Shown piece after piece: positions 1-29,218 of a stretch of DNA of 64,000 bases. The position numbers and the translations under genes are program-made. Source of the DNA: Euglena gracilis. Lineage: Eukaryota. How positions within the stretch are numbered: position 1 is the first letter of the stretch; every line of letters begins with the position of its first letter. The notes beneath the pieces were generated by a model. It searched no databases, was not told the origin of the DNA, and worked only from the letters and a program-made list of their open reading frames with translations. The stretch spans positions 9,550,634 through 9,614,633 of the forward strand of contig CP154954.1 in the NCBI GenBank assembly GCA_039621445.1, in the 5' to 3' direction.

Positions 1-693
1 AACCCCCTCCACAAAAAGTTTGGCTTTGAATTCATCAGCCACCAAAAGTTCTGTTTTGAGCACTTCCAACACTCTCCTCAAATCTTTTTCATGTGCCCCC
101 ACTAGATCCTCCCCTTCCCCGACCGTTGTCCACACCAGTATGTCGTCTATGTCCCCTGTGGCGATATCCCTTACTGGTGTCAAACGGTCATCGATCATTT
201 GCTGAAATTGTTGGGGGGCATTTGTCAAACCCATTACGTTCACCCTCCACTGAAAAATCCCTTTGGGGGTGAAACAACACGTTATGGGTCGACTTTCTGG
301 GTGTGAAGGTTGTTGGTGAAAAGCTTGATTTGAATCAATGATCGAAAACATTTGGTTTGCACCATGTTTGACAAAATGTCTTCAATTTTGGGTAAGGGGT
401 AGTTGCATCGCCTTGTTTGGCTGTTTGGGCCCCTGAGGTCCACCACCCCCCTCCAAGGAGAATCGTTGGATTTTTTTGGAACTGGAAAAGTCTGGGACAG
501 CCATTCAGAATTTTTGGCTGTGGCTGGCTCAATGTATTTTTTGTCGAGCCAGTCTTGGGTGATTTTTTCAAGTTCCTCTTTCCTCTCAGCATACATGAAA
601 AAAGGCTTCTGTCTGGTTGGCTTTGCCCCCTCCTTCAAAGGTATGTATGCATAACCATATTGTCCTCTTTCGGGGGGGGTCTGGAAATGGCGA
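1..693 (-). pseudogene. Reverse transcriptase (Ty3/Gypsy type), frameshifted, truncated by window edge
   Basis: Reconstructed: DPP/ERGQYGYAYIPLKEGAKPTRQKPF...SEWLSQTFPVPKK..WRGVVDLRGPNSQT..YPLPKIEDIL/KHGANQMFSIIDSNQAFHQ...FTPKGIFQWRVNVMGLTNAPQQFQQMID...TGDIDDILV. Frameshifts lie in the G8 run at 672-679 and near 371. The YxDD motif reads DIDD (142-153). Confidence 0.92.
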
Positions 694-1049
694 TTACCGA
701 AATACCGTCCCCCGGTAATCTTCCAAAACTTGTTCCCTCAACTTGACTACCCGTTCCTCCTCTTTTTTGTCCTCCCCCTCCCTTGCAATTATCATTCGGT
801 TGACAACTTGCACTGGGGGGTCACTTCCTTCCAAATTTGTGGCAACCTCCCCCAAGTCCTCGTCACTCAAAAATTGCAAGTCCTGGTCCAACCCTTCCAA
901 TGGCAAACAAAGACCAAGTTTTTGCAACCCAAACGAAGACCCGTCCGCCACAGTCACATTGTCCACTAAAACATTTGTGTCATCCCTGAATTTTTGCGGA
1001 CCCCTCCGTCCTTCAACACCCCGCAAAAAAATCAGGTCGGGGCTGTCTT

Positions 1050-1400
1050 TCACCAATGCCTTGTGGTGTGGAAAAATTCCCAGTTTTGCCTCCGCCAACC
1101 ATGGATAAGAAAGAATGGCATCAACTTTGATGTTTGCCTCATAAAATTCAAACTCATATTCCACAAACTCAATTTCCCTTTCCTCATTCGAATTTTGTTG
1201 AAGGATCATTTTCACCTTAGCACATCTGCTCCCCCCCGCCAAAGTTTGCCCATTGGCTGTTTCAAACCTTAACGGGTCCTTAGCAGGATACATTAGGTGG
1301 TCCCCTATCAACCCTTGTCGAATGAGGTTTGCCTCAGCCCCCGTGTCAATTAAAATTCTGGCCGTTTTTTCCTCCCCATTTGCCAACCGTATCTGTGTTT
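1050..1400 (-). CDS. Retropepsin-type aspartic protease domain (part of ORF 694..1761)
   Basis: ARILIDTGAEANLI (catalytic DTG at 1339-1347), flap-like FETANGQTL, and C-terminal AILSYPWL (ILGxxWL-like). Confidence 0.9.
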
Positions 1401-1533
1401 TTAACAGCAGTTGTCTGTCCTCCCCAAGTTTCTTTGCTCCTCCCCGAGTGTTTGTCCCTCTCAACATTCTTTTTTTCAGCCGCACCAATTTTTTCTTTCC
1501 TGGGGCTGCCCCCCCCTGGGAGGGTTGCCTTCT

Positions 1534-1917
1534 ATCAATCAACAAGGCCCACACCCCCCAACGGGTACCCCTCAAAATCCACCCATCAGCCTCAAACAAC
1601 TTTGTCCCCTTGGGAAAATAAATCTTTTTGACAGCAATAGCCACCAGATTTCTCACCCACCTCCTATTCCAGTCTGGGCAAATACAAATTGCCCGACAAT
1701 TGGAATTTTGCAATTTTTCAGCCACCTCAGGCCACAAAGTCCAGGGGGGGTTCATCCACAACGTTTCCTCCGCCCCCCATTCCTTTTTCGTGGCATCATC
1801 ATCCTCCCCATAAAACTTTTCACACCTGGCATTTTGGCTGGTTGCAAAACAATCCCGTTACGCCTTAACCCGAAATTCATTCTCAATTTCCTCCATACAA
1901 ACTTTCCTAACAGCATA
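1534..1917 (-). pseudogene. Dam-like (phage/DIRS-type) N6-adenine or amino DNA methyltransferase domain, one in-frame stop
   Basis: YAVRKVCMEEIENEFRVKA*RDCFATSQNARCEKFYGEDDDATKKEWGAEETLWMNPPWTLWPEVAEKL...AICICPDWNRRW. It has DxFA-xxxNA-C (SAM-binding-like, 1843-1854), catalytic NPPW (1741-1752) and a downstream PxW. ORFs 1858..2364 and 694..1761 share a frame and are separated by one TAA at 1858-1860. Confidence 0.85.
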
Positions 1918-1959
1918 ATCCTCCCTACGATATCCGCTTTTTCGTTCCAACACGGTTAA

Positions 1960-2545
1960 CAAATACTCCACCAGTTGTTTGGGCACCCTCCATTTTTTCT
2001 GAGTACCAACTGTCATTCCATATCCTCCCAAATTTTCTTGGTGACTCCTCCCCCCAGGAATCAAATTCGGGCAGGTCTGGCCATCACAAAGTTTGTTTTG
2101 TAGCTTGCTCAGATTTTCGCTCCCCCAGATTCGGGTGGGCTTTTGATATCCCCATTCTGAAAATTGACAATAATCAACATCGACAAAGGTCAGATTTTGA
2201 ACACAGGGTCTTTTTCGAAGCAACCCATGACGGGGATTTTCAATCCACCACAACTTTGGGTCGAAATATTCGACAATTTCCAAAGTTTTTTTGACCAGCC
2301 GATCTGCCTCCTCCAAATTTCTGACTCCCAACGTTTTGGCCAAGCTATATTCTGTACAGGGCACCCCCGCAGCGATGATCTGAAAATATCCGGGGGGTTA
2401 CCTCCAATATCTCCACTCCAAAATATTTGCACAGTGGGTTGGGTTAAATCTGGGGTTTATGTCCACTGACACAACCTTAAACCCCTGCTCTCTCAGGCAA
2501 TCCCCAACCGAGCCTTTACCGCAAAAAAATGTCTAAAGCTCTTTT
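1960..2545 (-). pseudogene. C5-cytosine DNA methyltransferase domain (compact), one frameshift and one stop
   Basis: Removing one base from the A7 run at 2523-2529 gives RALDIFCGKGSVG (motif I FxGxG), VVSVDIN (II), IIAAGVPCTEYS (IV, catalytic Cys at 2356-2358), WWIENP (VI, 2233-2241), DVDYCQF..GYQKPTRIW (VII-VIII) and WRVPKQLVEYLL (X-like). There is an in-frame TAA at 2398-2400. Confidence 0.92.
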
Positions 2546-2809
2546 CCTTACGGAAGGCTGTGCACGACCTCTTATGAGGTCTGATTCTTTACAGATTTGG
2601 GCCGAGTCACAGATTTGCACGTCACGCAGGCACGCACCCGACACACTGGACACACCTTGTGCAGAGATCTCCTGGGATGGCAGATTTTTCATCGTGGTTT
2701 CACTCGCACGAGATTTTTCATGCCACCTGGGATTTGTGTATGTCTTTGTGTGGGGCTGGGTATGTGAGCCCGGGGCGGCCCCCGCCCCCAACGGTCCACC
2801 CCGGCTATC

Positions 2810-3352
2810 CTAGCAACGGTTTCCTTTCCCCCTTCCTTTGCCTTTGCCTTTTCCACCATCTTGGCCCTTTCCCCTAGACCAGTCATTTCCATTGTTTCCT
2901 TTCCCCCAAGAATTGTTTCCTTTGCCCTTTCCTTTGCCTTTGCCTTTGCCACCACCAAACTGTGAATCAAAATTCTGTTGATTTGAGTGCCACCACTGAT
3001 TTCCCTGAAAATTGGCATTGGCATTGGAATTCCTCCCAGAATCGTTTCTCCATCCACCCCCATTGCCAAATTGAGATTGCTGGGGGGGTGAATATGACTG
3101 TGATCGAACCACTGGCACTGGATTTTGCACTTGGGGGTTCGCGTTTGCATCGGTCGCCGGAGCTGCCACCTGTGAATCTGATTTTTCAACGGACGGTTTT
3201 ACCACCGTTTCGCCCCCCTTTGCTGACCGTGCTGGGGAGGGTGTCCTGGACCCCTTGGCCCGATCTGCCTTTTCAGTCCTGGCCCTCCGGTTTCCGGACC
3301 CATTTGGCTCTCCGGAACTGTGTAACATGTCTTGATTATCCCTGGATGACAA
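2810..3352 (-). CDS. Low-complexity Gag C-terminal/linker region (Gly/Lys/Asn-rich, GKGKGKG repeats)
   Basis: ORF 2810..3352 lies between the Gag-like and MTase domains. No intact CCHC knuckle is visible. Confidence 0.55.
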   Translation of the reverse strand: MSSRDNQDMLHSSGEPNGSGNRRARTEKADRAKGSRTPSPARSAKGGETVVKPSVEKSDSQVAAPATDANANPQVQNPVPVVRSQSYSPPQQSQFGNGGGWRNDSGRNSNANANFQGNQWWHSNQQNFDSQFGGGKGKGKGKGKGNNSWGKGNNGNDWSRGKGQDGGKGKGKGRGKGNRC

Positions 3353-3422
3353 TTTTCGCTCAACAAAACGGAAAATTTCTTCAGCTCACATTTTTGACTG
3401 TTCCTCCACAATTTTGATTCTT

Positions 3423-4010
3423 TTATCCGTGCCTGTGATTGGTTTCACACTGACCTCTTTCAGTTTGTAGCAAATCGTAGTATAGGGCAAAAAGACTTCG
3501 AACTCCAGCGGTGAAACTTTCGAAACCTTGCAGGGCTTTTTCCCCAGTGACCCGTTCCACAGCACACATACTGTTTTCCTCCGTTGCTGGCACTCCAGGG
3601 TACATTTTGACTTTCGGTCCACACGTTGATTTCCTTTCCTCCTCATCGGCGACCCAATGCAAAATGAAATTTGGCAGTTTTCCTTTGACCAGTCTTTCTG
3701 CCTCATCGTCAGTGGCGCTTTTCACCTGTCTCCAGGCCATTTTGAAATTTATGACAAAGTCTTGCCATTCCCGTACAGTAATTTTCCCTTGGTTCACAAG
3801 GTGGACATCATTCCATTTTTTTTTGTTATTTTCGTACTTAGTTCCAGCATATTTCCCGTCAATTCTGTCAAATTTCTCGTCGAAAGATGTTTTTTGGTTC
3901 AATTCCATTCTGGATTGTAATTCCTTTTTATTTGTGTCGTCCAGCGTCATTGCAAAAAGCCTAAGTTTGAGTGAATCAGACACATGTCCATTTTTGTCAA
4001 AATAACCAAC
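3423..4010 (-). CDS. Gag/capsid-like domain, 5' end interrupted by a repeat insertion
   Basis: Helical charged ORF (SDSLKLRLFAMTLDD..KKKWNDVHLVNQGKITVREWQDFVINFKMAW..LPNFILHWVADEEERK) in the Gag position. The sequence above ~4010 belongs to a dispersed repeat family. Assignment is by position and composition only. Confidence 0.6.
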   Translation of the reverse strand, partial: VGYFDKNGHVSDSLKLRLFAMTLDDTNKKELQSRMELNQKTSFDEKFDRIDGKYAGTKYENNKKKWNDVHLVNQGKITVREWQDFVINFKMAWRQVKSATDDEAERLVKGKLPNFILHWVADEEERKSTCGPKVKMYPGVPATEENSMCAVERVTGEKALQGFESFTAGVRSLFALYYDLLQTERGQCETNHRHG

Positions 4011-6399
4011 GTCCTGAACTACGCAAAAAACGCCGGAACTTTGTTTAAAAGGGGTCAAAAAAATAGCCAAAAATAGCCTTTTCTGGTAGTTTTTTTGGGG
4101 GGGGCTTTCACCTCAAATTTTGGGCTGAAAAAAGCCAAGCCAGCTGGATCTGAAGGCTTTCTTTGCCTGTTCTCGGGTGCCGGCCGGGTGCAGCCTGGCA
4201 TCTAGTCGGACCCACCCCCCCCGGACCCTCCACCCCCCAGGGGGGCCCATCCAACACCTTTTTTCCAGCTTCTGGGCTGGCCCCCGGGATCCTCAAAAAA
4301 GTCCCTGCCTCAGGGAGGTGTGGTTTTATTTTGGGGAGGGGGGTTGGATTGGGCGGGAAAATCGAATTTCCATGACCAAACATTTTTTTCCAAAAAAATG
4401 CATTTTCAGTGAGAAAGATCGTTGAGATAAATCTGTCAGGTGACAGGTCAGCGAGTACAGAGGTAGGTGACAGGTCTCCATGGTGACATGGTGACAGGTC
4501 AGTGAGTACAGGGCTCAGGTGACAGTTTCCAGGGGGGGGGGGAGGTATGTGCAGGTTACTGAATGTCAAAAACCTGGCACCCGGGAGAAGGTTCACTGTA
4601 ACCCCAGGTGGGGTGAAGCTTCGGTCACCCACCCCTTGGGGTCACCCACCAATCGCCATGCATCACGCTGCATCGCGATTGGTGGGGGTGAGTTGGGCCG
4701 AAAGCAAACCCTCTCAAGAGCGTTTCACCACCTGCCCACCACGGTGAAAACTCAACTCTGGATATCAGTGCGTCCTATGCAGCAAAAATGTGCAATAGGC
4801 CAACACCCGTGGCTTCGGCCGAAAACTGAGCTCTTGTGTGCAGAATTTCAGGCTAGAGTGGCCATCATGGGTGGACTGGAGAGGATGGGAATGGCTTATT
4901 AGAGAGAGAGGCGGACGGGGGCGTCAACACCAAATGATGAGCTCGGGCGACTCAGCGCTGACGGCAGACCAGCTGCCAGATGACAGGAGATGACTGAAAG
5001 ACAGGAGGGGGGGGGTGGTGGTTTGGAAAGCTTGGATGGCCCTGTCGGGCATGGCAACAAACACAGTCTGGCTTCCCACGGTTCAGATACAGCCGATGCG
5101 CGCAGCCAAAGTTCGGCACAACAATGCTCAAATGGACGTGCAGCAGCCACCTACAAAAAGGAAATTTTATTGAATGGCAGCGAAGGACACCTACATCAAG
5201 TAGCACAAAATGGCTCCTTAAAGAGCCTTGTCTGCGGGGGTGGAGTTTCTGAGACCGCCCGATTTCTTTCACTCTTCAGATGCTTAAAGAAAAGCCTTGA
5301 AGCATTGAAAACATGGCACTTTAATCCCCCCCAACATACATCCTCCCCAATTTTTTCAGATTTGTGCATTCTTTGTGCATGCGTTTTTTTGCAACGTGAC
5401 ATTTTCCTCAAATTCCCATTTGACTTTTTTAAAAAGTGCGTCATTTTTGCATTTTTGGTATTTTTTGCACTTCCGGGCTTCTTGCTCCTTTTCTACCAGA
5501 TTGCACATTTCTGTGAATTTTAAAAGGGGGTTATGTCTCCCAAAATTTGTGGATATTGGCAGCCTCCCTTTCCATAACCAGAGGGAATGCACCAGCCTGG
5601 CTGAGAAAAAAAAAATGCGCAAAAAAGAGCGCATTTTCACTCTCAAAAAAATCTAGCAAAAAATGCACAAAAAATCGATAAGCATTCCCCCCCATGCCAT
5701 AATCCACACTGGCGCACACCACCTCTTTTCCAAACCATACATCTCTTTAAGGACCCCGGGGAGGGGGGTTGCTGGGCTAGGGCTAGAAATTTGGGTTGGC
5801 AAGAAATTTGGGCGGCTTGCCCCTCCCCCCCCGGGGGGGGGGGGGGGGGGGGCTGGACCCCGGTTTGACCCGAGCCGGGGCGAGCTGGACTGAAATTGGA
5901 AAAATGCCCAAAAATGACCTGCGAAACACAGTTTTGAAAAAATGACGCATCTGAAACCCCCCAAAAATGCCCCAAACGGCCCCCAAACCCCATTTTTGGC
6001 CACTTTTGAACACAGTTTTTTTCAAAAAATTTCGGCGCTTTGCGCCGAAAAATTTTGGGCTGGACCCCCAAAAAGGGGCTGGCTAGCTAGGGCCAGCAGC
6101 ACCCCCCCTCCCCGGGGGAGGGGGCTGCTGCGGCTGGGCTGGGCCCAAATCGGGGCTGGCTGCAACCGCCCCCCCGGGGGGGGGGGGGGGCGCAAAACCT
6201 TAGAGAGATGTATGTCCCAAACCCTCATCTGATGCATCCCTATTTGTCTTCTGTCTGCAAATGTCCACTCGAATTCTTATCTGTGCCAGTCTGAATTATG
6301 GCGATCATCCGCACAAACACAAATGCATCCTTGCGCCTCCACCCCCAAAAATCCACAAAGACATCCGGTGAAGGGGCAACCCCCTTGGGTTCCCGGGCC

Positions 6400-6593
6400 T
6401 GGCAACAGCCTGGTCGCCACTGGCGCGCACAAAGCAGCCGGCCCCTCTGTCGGGGGTCTGCAGGAGCACCCCGCCTTCCACGGGCACCGGTGTGACGGCC
6501 GTGAGGAGGGGGCCAGCCGCAGCGTCCACCAGAGAACGGATGGGGCTGACATTTGAGATTTGGGAGCCACACACACGCGCACGCACACCCCCA

Positions 6594-6638
<45 letters not shown>

Positions 6639-7002
6639 ACACGCACACAACACGCACACACACACACACACAACACACACACACACACACACAACACACA
6701 CACACACACACACCACACGCACACACACACACACACACACACAACACACACACACACACAACACACAACACACACACACGCACAACACGTACACAACACA
6801 CAACGCACAACACACACACAACACACAACACACACACACAAAACACGCACAACACGTACACAACACACAACACACACACACACACACCGCACACAAAACA
6901 CACACACACAACACACACACAACACACCCACAACCCCCACACACACCACACACCACGCACACAAGACAAACAACACACAACACACACACACACACACACA
7001 CA

Positions 7003-7039
<37 letters not shown>

Positions 7040-10000
7040 TATTATGTAGATTATATATATATATTATTTCAAACTGAAAAGTGACTCTCTTAAATTGGAA
7101 AGTCTTCCCACATATCAAAAATCTGCTTGCGGGTGGGGGCTGACCCTTTGCGATCGGGATGGCAGCGTTGCCCTCAGGGGTCATGGTTTGACAGTCTTGC
7201 ACACCTACAGCCATTGACCTAAATGGAGAATCAGTTGTGAATCACAGAATCGTACCCCTGGGACAAAAGGTTCGGGAAACTTTGGCCGACAGGACGTCGC
7301 AAGTCAGGCGCAAACGTCGAAACCAAAAGTGGAATTGTTTAGCCGTTGGAAGGGAAGACTCCTGTCCATCGTGATGCGGAACGTCGGCGTCGGAAGGGTC
7401 CTCTTCCTTTGGGACTTGTTTGCGGGCACTCTCTTATCCAGACCCAAGAATGATTTTTTTTCTTGGACATTCTTCTGGACATCAAATATAATTCTGGACA
7501 TCAAATATGCGACCCAAAAGCAGACTGCCATCTCCCCCAGCCAAGAGCAATGTGCGGCTGTATTTTCTGCGGCAACCCCCTACTCGACTGTTGGGCAATA
7601 TGGCTGCGTCAAATGAGCCGAGGGAGGTTGATTCATTGGTTCCTTCACTCATAGCTATACTCCCCCCCCCCGGAAAACTGTCACCTGACAGGTCGAGGGT
7701 GTACGGGAAAACCTGAGGGGGGTCCACCCCCACAACACCAACCATGGCACTTGGGGACATTGATTCTGCGGAAGAGGCTGAAGAGGAAAATTCTGACTGA
7801 AAAAGGGGTCGGACCTCTGGATATGACTTGCCAACTGTTACGGAGGGACGTTTTTTTTGGGTCAGCACCAGCCCGGTGGCAGTCTTCCCAGGGTGGGGCT
7901 GTGCTGGAAACCTGGAAGCCCTGTGGGTGGAGGGCCGGGGGTCGACCCTTCTCCCCATCCAATCCTTCCAGGGGGGCCCCTGAAAAGCAAATCGCATCCA
8001 GCGGCCCCTCAGCTTGACCACCGCGAAACCACAGCATGGCAAACTTGTTAGGGTAATGAAAAGCCAATGGCGGGCAAAAAAAAAATATTCAAAAAAATAA
8101 AATAATTAACATAAAAAATATTGCGTACAAAAAAATGGGAAAAAAAGTAGTTCCCAGAGGCAGCCCGACCGGTCCACCCGCTGCCGCACCTTGGAGAACA
8201 GGCGGGCCGTGAAACCGGCCGGCCTTCGTGGCTCGGCCGGGGCGGGCTCCGGCAGCAGCCGGGCGGCGCCCCGGCCGGTCCCGGGGCTCTGTGGCAGGCC
8301 TGCGATGATGGGCCGGTGGGGCCAGGCTTCTGTCTAGTCCCGTGGTGGTCCCGAGGGGTTTGGGGAGGGGGGGGGGGGTTTGTTTACGACCCCGGGGGGG
8401 GTCCCGGGGAACCCACTCACTTCACGGCCCGAAGGCGCCAAAGTTTTGTTGAAAAAGGTGCTATTTTTAGCACTTTTTCGTGAAAGAGTGCTAAAAATAG
8501 CACCGTTTTCAACAAAAATTTGGCGCCTTCGGGCCGGACCCACACACCCAACCCCCCCCCCCAGAGTCCAAGACTAAAACACCCCTGGAGGGGTCCACCC
8601 GCCCGCCCACCCAGCCTGGTCCGGGGCAGGACCACCAGGGGGTGGGTGTCCGGCCCCAGACCCACCCGCCCAAAAGGGGGGCTTCCGAGGTACAAAGCAG
8701 CCTGGGTGTGGGGGCGTGCGGATGGCGCGGGGGTCACCGCCTGGGTGGAGGTCGCAGACCAAACCCATGCCGGTGGATCATGCAGAGTGTTTGAGGAACG
8801 CCAAGGGGCACACTTGAGGGACACCTCCCACGTCCACCACCGAACCCGGTGTGAGCTACAAAGAAAGGACGTGATTTGGCACTCTACTCCATCGTCCACA
8901 GCAAGAGCAACAGAGTTTCCAACTTTGGACAAATTCGGATTCTCACGAAGCCTTCCTAATGAACCCTACTGAGTACAGATGACGGTCACGTTCAGATAAC
9001 AATAAAACCCCCAAATATAACCCCCCCCCAAATATAAAACCCCCCTGAGGACCTTGAAATCTCGCCCAAATATCCCCCTCCGGCGCGAAGCGCCGGAAGG
9101 AAAAAAATTCGAAAAAATATCTCCTGAAATTGTGATTTATGTCAGATTTGGGAACAATTTTCACCAAAAACATGTGAAGGTTGCTCCTTCGCCCGAAAAG
9201 TGAAATGTTTGGACCCCGGGGGGTGGGTGTATTAGTGATTTTGGACCGAAAAAGTGACAACTGGATCCCGCCAGGAAGTTGAATTTTCCGACCGAATATA
9301 AAACCCCCAAATAGAAAAACCCCCTGGGGATCTTGAAATTTGCGCCCGAATATAAAACCGGGGGGGGTTGTATTTGGGGGGGGGGGTAACTTTCCTCCGC
9401 TCCAAATTCTTCCACCATCGGGAGAAAAACGTATTGCACAAAATCAGTTGGTAGGGGTGAAAATCAAACATTTGGTGCCAGTAAATTGGCACCTCGGAAC
9501 ATTTTGGGGGGGTCAAACATTTTTTCCCACACACGAGGGAAACGTGCGAACGGGACACAAATCTGCCATAAACTGAAATAAGCGGTGAACTAATAAACTG
9601 GCACGAATGGAATTGATGCGGCTCCCTCTCCACCCAGACCAAATAGCGTCCGGGTGGCCCACACTCCGGACTCCGGAGCTTCCTGCGAGAGCCGCAGCCG
9701 GCTGGGCAGCGCGGCCGACGCGGCTGCGGGGCCGGCTGGAAATGGGTGGGCGGGAGACCGCCGTCGGTGCAGGGAGGGCGAGAGGAGGGCAGGGGACTGG
9801 GGCCAGAACCTGCCTTTGGCAAAGAGTTCTTCCATGCCAGGGATGGGGAATGAAGATAGACAGGCAGAAATCACAGACTGCAAACACACATGAGGTGAGG
9901 TTTGCATGCATGGGTGTATGTGCTCGCGGATGCATGTGCACATGTGCATACCCATGTGCACATATTTGGACATACGTGCCAGAATCGGAGGTGTGCTGGC

Positions 10001-29136: not shown

Positions 29137-29218
29137 GAGCAATTACCCAAGTGGTCCAAGGCCAGGGCTGTCAAAACAGTGCATTCTGTGTGTGTGGGTT
29201 CGAATCCCACATTGCTTA
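29137..29218 (+). tRNA. tRNA-like sequence (type II, Leu-like), probably a pseudogene
   Basis: 82 nt. Acceptor GAGCAAT/ATTGCTT, A-box-like CAAGTGGTCCAAGG, perfect T arm GTGGG-TTCGAAT-CCCAC and a long variable region. The anticodon arm does not fold canonically (gctgt-caaa-acagt). Confidence 0.55.

Follow-up and report, generated by a model that had tools for sequence, protein, structure and literature searches.

The first ~4020 positions of a 64,000-nucleotide stretch of Euglena gracilis DNA (assembly GCA_039621445.1, contig CP154954.1, positions 9,550,634 to 9,614,633; in the following, the window) carry a copy of a retrotransposon in which two predicted methyltransferases stand ahead of the protease. 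Open reading frame (ORF) and profile analysis placed every feature of the element on the minus strand. From 5' to 3' on this strand, a putative gag is followed by a compact C5-cytosine methyltransferase (C5), a Dam-like methyltransferase with an NPPW motif, a DTG protease and a reverse transcriptase (RT) that continues to the window edge (Table 1). Long terminal repeat (LTR) retrotransposons of Euglena gracilis with DAM, DNMT and chromodomain are named 'EpiLTRs' in a recent preprint (bioRxiv 10.64898/2026.05.21.726589, 22 May 2026), to whose running text all statements about it below refer.

The main frame, between 2532 and 694, reads TFFCGKGS..GVPCTEYS..WWIENP..YQKPTRIWG, followed by ..RDCFATSQNARC..LWMNPPW.. 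and then by ..ILIDTGAEANLI... It is broken by TAA triplets at 2398-2400 and 1858-1860 and ended by a third TAA at 694-696; the read-through translation, with X at the stops, is referred to as P0001. Upstream of seven consecutive T (2523-2529, coding strand) the reading frame is shifted by a single base. If the T run is given the length that it has in other copies, motif I of the C5 domain becomes ..RALDIFCGKGS.. and is joined to the ORF 2516-2809.

The best match to this translation is P0156 (eukprot:EG_transcript_113), a transcript-derived protein of 1540 amino acids (aa) that is 95% identical over 400 aa. The two RT ORFs, 282-737 and 1-381, correspond to its residues 396-533 and 508-632, and the window stops at residue 632, close to where RVT_1 ends. 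The RVT_1 profile of Pfam scored 41.8 bits. The protease scored weakly, and below cut-off, with gag-asp_proteas and Asp_protease_2 (19-20 bits) and is 96% identical to the protease of P0156. For the N-terminal part of gag no Pfam match was found at E<=1; in the ESM Atlas its features score 0.91-0.93 for resemblance to 'polyprotein', caulimovirus coat and Retrotrans_gag clusters, a result that we take as a lead only. The C-terminal part of gag lies in another frame than the N-terminal part in the window copy, and no CCHC knuckle is visible in its translation.

Table 1. Features of the retrotransposon copy in the window
Feature	Position	Strand	Remarks
gag, N-terminal part (putative)	3423..3986	(-)	ORF open from 4112, likely ATG near 3986
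gag, C-terminal part, G/K/N-rich (putative)	2810..3385	(-)	ends at TAG 2810-2812
linker opening pol, ~92 aa	2516..2809	(-)	same frame as gag, directly past the TAG
C5-cytosine DNA methyltransferase domain, ~200 aa (predicted)	1936..2532	(-)	motifs I, IV, VI, VIII and fold
Dam-like (PF05869) amino-methyltransferase domain (predicted)	1528..1935	(-)	NPPW at 1741-1752; Pfam
retropepsin-like aspartyl protease	1123..1410	(-)	DTG at 1339-1347
acidic linker, protease to RT	694..1122	(-)	95% identical to P0156; ends with the TAA
reverse transcriptase (RVT_1), Ty3/gypsy type	1..737	(-)	cut by window edge

A first-pass annotation of this DNA had read a C5 methyltransferase, an NPPW amino-methyltransferase and a DTG protease in one repaired frame, and had its coordinates and motifs right. 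The tandem arrangement that it proposed between gag and protease is supported by the motifs, the PF05869 match and the fold of the C5 domain, and the gypsy-type RT that it placed after the protease by the RVT_1 score and the gypsy order of pol in P0156. Its repairs, a homopolymer frameshift and two stops, are present, but the RT needs two more frame changes (~672 and ~371) and gag one (~3537). The profile check that it suggested divides: PF05869 scores above its cut-off and RVT_1 reaches 41.8 bits; PF00145 and the aspartyl protease families score below their cut-offs.

Predicted methyltransferase domains

The Pfam profile of C5 methyltransferases, PF00145, reaches only 16.7-19 bits in the window copy (cut-off 22), and the assignment was therefore tested by homologues, alignment, model and fold search. 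Four motifs are recognizable, FCGKGS (as FFCGKGS at ~2509-2529), GVPCTEYS (PC at 2356-2361), WIENP (ENP at 2233-2241) and YQKPTRIWG (QKPTR at 2131-2145), which we take to be motifs I (FxGxG), IV (PC with the catalytic Cys), VI (ENV/ENP) and VIII (QxRxR-like) of C5 enzymes. A phmmer search of 1.84 billion representatives returned 3734 proteins with E<=1e-3, 244 of them with E<=1e-30, numbers far beyond chance. PF00145 scored 25.3-29.2 bits in five relatives and 16.3-21.8 bits, again below 22, in five others. In an alignment of 37 sequences residues P58, C59, E61, E98, P100 and R134 are almost invariant, while the target-recognition region is reduced and holds conserved Cys/His. The AlphaFold model built on this alignment has a mean predicted local distance difference test score (pLDDT) of 92.4, and Foldseek found 134 PDB matches at E<=0.001. 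Among the matches listed all are C5 DNA methyltransferases (DNMT3A/B/C, DNMT1, DIM2, M.HhaI and M.HaeIII), with DNMT3B as the best (E 1.1e-6). By sequence, the read-through protein matched nothing meaningful in the PDB (best E 0.86). By motifs and fold the compact domain is a C5 DNA methyltransferase, with catalysis predicted.

Four further residues, C122, C149, C154 and H164 (numbered in the translation of 1897-2532 on the minus strand), are almost invariant in the same 37 sequences and lie in the short replacement of the target-recognition region. They may form a putative zinc site.

The Dam-like domain matches PF05869 with 36.2 bits at a cut-off of 28.1 (E 6.2e-9; residues 213-265 of P0001), and the match spans the TAA at 1858-1860. 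The NPP of its NPPW motif is conserved in the alignment, and an Asn-Pro-Pro triplet is given as the conserved core of eukaryotic DAM (10.64898/2026.05.21.726589). The model of the domain has a pLDDT of 91.4. All four of its Foldseek matches in the PDB at E<=0.001 are PCIF1/CAPAM, the cap-specific adenosine N6-methyltransferase (PDB 6irx, 6irw; best E 6.8e-5; 12-16% identity). PCIF1, a cellular RNA enzyme of ~700 aa with extra domains, has NPPF where the Dam-like domain has NPPW. It also came first with VIA-align (Z 10.9, rmsd 3.5, 130 residues aligned), followed by E. coli Dam and T4 Dam (Z 9.0) and then by the rRNA adenine methyltransferases Erm, KsgA and DIMT1. We do not claim the Dam-like domain as a member of the PCIF1 family. 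As modelled, it has the fold of an adenine-N6 (amino) methyltransferase, and this fold leaves the substrate unsettled.

Long relatives and the possible source of the C5 module

From a word index, 38 longer proteins were recovered at E<=1e-10, and slices of P0001 and P0156 served to locate their modules by BLASTP. The match of P0156 begins at Met213 of P0001, within Dam, and the protein continues after Dam with protease, RVT_1, RNase H, Integrase_H2C2, rve and Chromo; the last of these (PF00385, 49.2 bits) lies beyond the part of the element that is in the window. P0157, P0158 and P0160 show RVT_1, RT_RNaseH, Integrase_H2C2 and rve in this order and a C-terminal chromodomain. No tyrosine recombinase family is listed in Pfam scans of 13 relatives, in which rve and H2C2 were found. 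The integrase type, which the first-pass annotation wished to see checked, is thus the DDE integrase with chromodomain in the relatives and not a tyrosine recombinase. Its other concern, that copies of the same RT family might lack the methyltransferases, is answered by P0157-P0160, whose RT is 77-84% identical to that of P0156 and in which both modules are present.

Both methyltransferases occur in 17 of the 38 long relatives and C5 alone in another 17. Two have Dam only, both beginning inside Dam and so being N-terminally incomplete, and two have neither. Among the 17 with both modules, the order of the window, C5, Dam, protease and RT, is the most frequent (six proteins: P0157-P0160, P0165 and P0167). 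These six, all metagenomic, run on to RNase H and integrase in single frames of 1440-1911 aa and are 34-55% identical to the query. Four (P0162, P0163, P0164 and P0166) have protease, Dam, C5 and RT, three (P0168, P0173 and P0177) C5, protease and Dam, two (P0161 and P0181) Dam before C5, and the remaining two (P0171 and P0182) Dam, protease and C5. In addition, C5 stands between RNase H and integrase in P0186, as in the metagenomic locus L004, and after the integrase in P0193. Since the long relatives come from gene prediction on metagenomes, part of the orders may be artefactual; yet each is read without a break over 1100-2200 aa, and the same variety was met among the shorter phmmer matches (154 proteins). 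Judged from these predicted proteins, the C5 module occupies at least five positions among the relatives. The catalytic motifs of both methyltransferases are kept in relatives down to 34% identity.

The predicted pol proteins of the relatives begin 16-167 aa before C5 (78 and 82 aa in P0157 and P0159), which fits a stop at a place similar to that in the window copy. One metagenomic protein, P0171 (2215 aa), contains two C5-like segments, before RT and between RNase H and integrase, besides its Dam module. This double C5 may reflect a duplication or a merged prediction.

To trace the C5 module outside retroelements, metagenomes were scanned with the C5 alignment; 599 stretches matched, 586 were confirmed, and the loci of the best 80 of these were analysed. 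Retroelement domains were found in five of the 80. Among the other 75, eight have at least 2.5 kb on both sides, and in these C5 is a stand-alone frame of 216-265 aa; seven of the eight contigs have 28-34% GC. Pfam named 5 of 20 ORFs neighbouring the stand-alone genes, and the neighbours include an N6/N4 methyltransferase, DUF5906/VapE-like proteins and a TET/JBP oxygenase; no capsid gene was found among the Pfam-scanned neighbours. In a viral structure library the best match to the C5 model is a putative cytosine DNA methyltransferase of Tetraselmis virus 1 (BFVD A0A2P0VN45, 218 aa; E 6.7e-18, template modelling scores 0.80/0.78, 35% identity), which it matches over the whole length and which has the same compact size; the viral protein is a stand-alone gene, whereas the C5 domain of the window is part of a polyprotein. 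The AT-richness, the DUF5906/VapE-like proteins, the TET/JBP neighbour and this fold match suggest that the stand-alone contigs are virus-like, and genes of ~220 aa on such contigs appear to be the nearest kin of the C5 module outside retroelements. A phage collection gave only ten weak matches (24-32% identity); hence cultured phages are not close kin.

The TET/JBP oxygenase lies on a 9-kb AT-rich contig (L056, 2366-4657), where it is fused to a family-25 glycosyltransferase directly upstream of the stand-alone C5 gene. The pair looks like a viral cytosine hypermodification cassette, and this predicted neighbour is one indirect hint that C5 transfers to DNA cytosine.

A quick, unrooted maximum-likelihood tree of 110 C5 rows, from which six of the 80 loci (short match or stop) and long proteins without a C5 match of at least 150 aa were omitted, and in which the label 'stand-alone' is weak for short contigs, put 39 of the 40 modules carried by retroelements on the same side of a branch that has an SH-like approximate likelihood-ratio test (SH-aLRT) support of 95. 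The exception, P0193, sits on a long branch. The simplest reading of this predicted phylogeny is a single entry of C5 into chromovirus-like elements with rearrangement afterwards. The preprint places the DNMTs of EpiLTRs as sister to DNMT4 (10.64898/2026.05.21.726589).

Abundance, integrity and decay of the copy

Parts of the stretch are contained in twenty coded sequencing runs, of which four were compared in detail: X1, X2, X15, which is RNA by guess only, and X20, a metatranscriptome. The summed word depth, which does not equal copy number, is 135,000-739,000 (X1) and 52,000-302,000 (X2) across positions 1-4000, as compared to 161-215 and 69-80 in the flank at 4601-5600. With a depth about three orders of magnitude over its flank, the element is clearly a very abundant repeat. 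No second copy was detected within the window by tblastn or blastn. Transcription is hinted at by the transcriptome-derived P0156 and by contigs in X20.

The methyltransferase region is as deep as protease and RT. Contigs bridge the junction of C5 and Dam (X15 record 12, 1568-1927; X20 record 28, 1685-2099) and the part from Dam through the protease and beyond (X20 record 27, 724-1680). The methyltransferases are an integral, family-wide part of pol. A one-off nested insertion of the methyltransferase block into an ordinary gypsy element, or an assembly chimera, might be suspected in a copy riddled with stops and frame changes, the more so as possible nested or chimeric forms are mentioned among the elements of E. 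gracilis (10.64898/2026.05.21.726589). The even depth and the bridging of every junction in independent runs speak against it, as do the uninterrupted Dam, protease and RT of P0156 and the six diverged relatives with the same order in single open frames. This explanation is refuted for practical purposes.

At its 5' side the copy breaks off. The depth in X1 falls from 135,000 (3801-4000) to ~1,500 (4001-4200), and other copies diverge from the window after ~3994-4020, where loose contig ends are found. The 5' untranslated region and any LTR are therefore missing from the window copy, and no high-copy sequence lies upstream of the repeat end near 4020. Lacking its 5' end and carrying three in-frame stops and four frameshifts, the window copy is dead.

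Most of these lesions can be compared with other copies. In each of the four runs, practically the whole depth at positions 1860 and 695 has another letter, which gives sense codons. Another letter likewise makes up practically the whole depth at position 3388 in X1, X2 and X15, the runs with cover there. No difference at position 2400 is among the 40 listed of 271, and homologues have Tyr or Phe at this position. One-base length differences occur at 371, 672, 2523 and 3537, and the alternative lengths restore a continuous frame. These frame-restoring lengths make up 15-30% of the summed DNA depth, all or nearly all depth of X20 at 371, 672 and 2523 (22.3 of 24.8 at 672), and all depth of X15 at the four sites. 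This suggests that the window copy belongs to a large frameshifted subfamily, possibly non-autonomous, beside in-frame expressed copies.

The stops could also be read as sense codons of a variant genetic code, in which case the copy would be intact. All three stops in the frame of methyltransferases and protease are TAA, and in the other two frames of the strand TGA accounts for 74 of 108 stops. Essentially all other copies, however, have the sense-codon letter at 1860 and 695, and P0156 has Glu at the position of 1860. Homologues differ in what they place at the stops, Tyr or Phe at 2400 and Asp, Glu, Thr or Gln at 1860, and the four frame changes persist under any code. A variant meaning of TAA, which we hold to be extremely improbable, was rejected on the letters of other copies, the Glu of P0156 and the mixed residues of the homologues.

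The ratio of observed to expected CpG is 0.56 in the element and 0.66 in the rest of the window. No specific signal of CpG decay was seen; two of 11 transitions fall on CpG of other copies, among the same 40 of 271 differences.

Several other features were noted along the window. Short direct repeats ('ggtgacaggtc...') occupy 4436-4540, just past the truncated 5' end of the element, with a depth of 120,000 in X1 and many contig back-joints. A second very abundant repeat at 5600-6000 (X1 depth 380,000-940,000) equals the retrotransposon in depth; it includes ~30 consecutive G at 5821-5850, parts of it are skipped by many contigs, and BLAST shows no relation between it and the element. At 6550-7080, (GA)n comes after a long (CA/TG)n-like microsatellite, and this stretch gives rise in every frame to spurious ORFs rich in Cys/Val and His/Thr. 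Rfam recognized a single RNA family in the window, with one tRNA (29137-29218, plus strand; 38.7 bits). As to host genes, ten long ORFs of the window gave no Pfam family except one sub-threshold match.

Classification and possible function

Taken together, we are fairly confident that the window copy is a defective, 5'-truncated member of an abundant chromovirus-like Ty3/gypsy family of Euglena gracilis, whose pol opens with the C5 and DIRS-type Dam-like modules and continues with protease, RT, RNase H, DDE integrase and chromodomain, an element of the 'EpiLTR' kind. The order of pol is seen with protease and RT in the window and with the remainder in P0156, P0157, P0158 and P0160. Likewise, of the set that characterizes EpiLTRs, DAM and DNMT are in the window and the chromodomain is in these same four proteins.

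The PF05869-type domain is shared with DIRS retrotransposons, where it typically follows RT and RNase H in elements that are not known to have a protease. DIRS are tyrosine recombinase elements (10.64898/2026.05.21.726589). They differ from the relatives of the window element, which have a protease, a DDE integrase (rve) and a chromodomain; the protease is found in the window itself. Retrotransposon-borne C5 methyltransferases are known from Gypsy-DNMT3 of streptophytes and from SymbioLINE-DNMT and SymbioDIRS-DNMT3 of dinoflagellates, and are thought to methylate the cDNA of their own element (Nat Commun 2018;9:1341, PMC5890265; names after 10.64898/2026.05.21.726589). Those elements carry one methyltransferase, of DNMT3 or another type, whereas the window element combines a Dam-like domain with a compact C5 domain of ~200 aa, for which the best match among viral folds is an enzyme of a giant virus.

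Closest are the EpiLTRs themselves, which belong to the DAM-LTRs reported from five lineages (10.64898/2026.05.21.726589). The EpiLTR of Cymbomonas tetramitiformis is, like the window element, chromovirus-like with DAM and DNMT; it has DNMT at the 3' end of pol, where the window element has both methyltransferases opening pol before the protease. A comparable position is taken by C5 in the distant relative P0193. The Euglena EpiLTR agrees with the window element in its host, in being of LTR type with DAM, DNMT and chromodomain and in its eukaryotic, DIRS-derived DAM of PF05869 type. Nothing in the text of the preprint is demonstrably different; the domain order is not part of that text, in which neither 'gag' nor 'protease' occurs. 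The novelty implied by the first-pass annotation hence does not hold, as Euglena EpiLTRs with these domains were already described (10.64898/2026.05.21.726589). The kind of element with two writers is already known, probably this very family, and the window provides a decayed, confirmed example.

A self-marking role of the DAM domain was proposed in the preprint (10.64898/2026.05.21.726589). For the present element we can envisage such a mechanism, although we give it somewhat less than an even chance. The TAG of gag is in frame with pol in the window copy, so that Gag-Pol would arise by occasional readthrough. The methyltransferases would be packaged together with RT and freed by the protease, and the newly made cDNA or the fresh insertion would be methylated, yielding 5-methylcytosine (5mC) and N6-methyladenine (6mA). 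In the host, CpG methylation is near-default and 6mA is found at a subset of active genes (10.64898/2026.05.21.726589). A new copy, its integration steered by the chromodomain, might thus arrive with host-like marks, i.e. heavy CpG methylation and the 6mA of some active genes.

Several observations weigh against this classification and this role. No LTR lies in the window, where the copy ends at ~4020 and its 3' part is outside, and the term 'LTR element' rests on the type of pol and on the relatives. The PF00145 score of the window copy is below cut-off, both activities are predicted from motifs and fold, and the structure closest to the Dam-like domain is an RNA methyltransferase, PCIF1, rather than a DNA enzyme. 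The four frame-breaking indels are common to 70-85% of the DNA depth, so that much of the family may be dead. According to the preprint, moreover, 6mA did not increase in dam-deficient E. coli when eukaryotic DAMs were assayed there, and the expression of LTR elements in E. gracilis is low or undetectable (10.64898/2026.05.21.726589).

Some of these points would be accommodated if the Dam-like domain were no writer of 6mA in DNA but methylated adenine in RNA or in an RNA:DNA intermediate, e.g. the capped genomic RNA of the element, or served only as a binding or structural module, the element being otherwise as described. PCIF1/CAPAM leads both independent fold searches and is the sole PDB match at the Foldseek threshold. 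The preprint itself, which reports that 6mA did not rise in E. coli, considers an RNA-DNA hybrid as substrate and states that eukaryotic DAMs are without the first catalytic and the recognition subdomains of prokaryotic Dam (10.64898/2026.05.21.726589). Against this stands the above-threshold match to PF05869, a family of DNA adenine methyltransferases, and Z scores of 9-11 separate RNA from DNA adenine methyltransferases weakly; a common fold is no proof of a common substrate. DAM-LTR insertions, furthermore, are richer in 6mA than other LTR elements (10.64898/2026.05.21.726589). We therefore consider an RNA-directed or non-catalytic Dam-like domain unlikely. A broader version would regard both modules as freely shuffled foreign cassettes, with a C5 of giant-virus type that entered chromoviruses once and then changed place among at least five positions in pol, and a PCIF1-like Dam domain that acts inside the particle on the RNA or RNA:DNA of the element and writes no 6mA in DNA. 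This combination seems to us rather improbable; if true, a Dam-like module of this kind would explain the negative E. coli assays.

The classification as a chromovirus-like element with two predicted writers is thus retained. Beyond the text of the preprint, the analysis adds C5 modules at many positions of chromovirus polyproteins, compact virus-like kin of these modules, and a PCIF1-like fold of the Dam-like domain, which suggests that RNA and hybrid substrates are worth testing. Methylation writers carried by the element would invert the usual picture of a host that silences its transposons: the epigenetic state of a newly arrived element may be of its own making.

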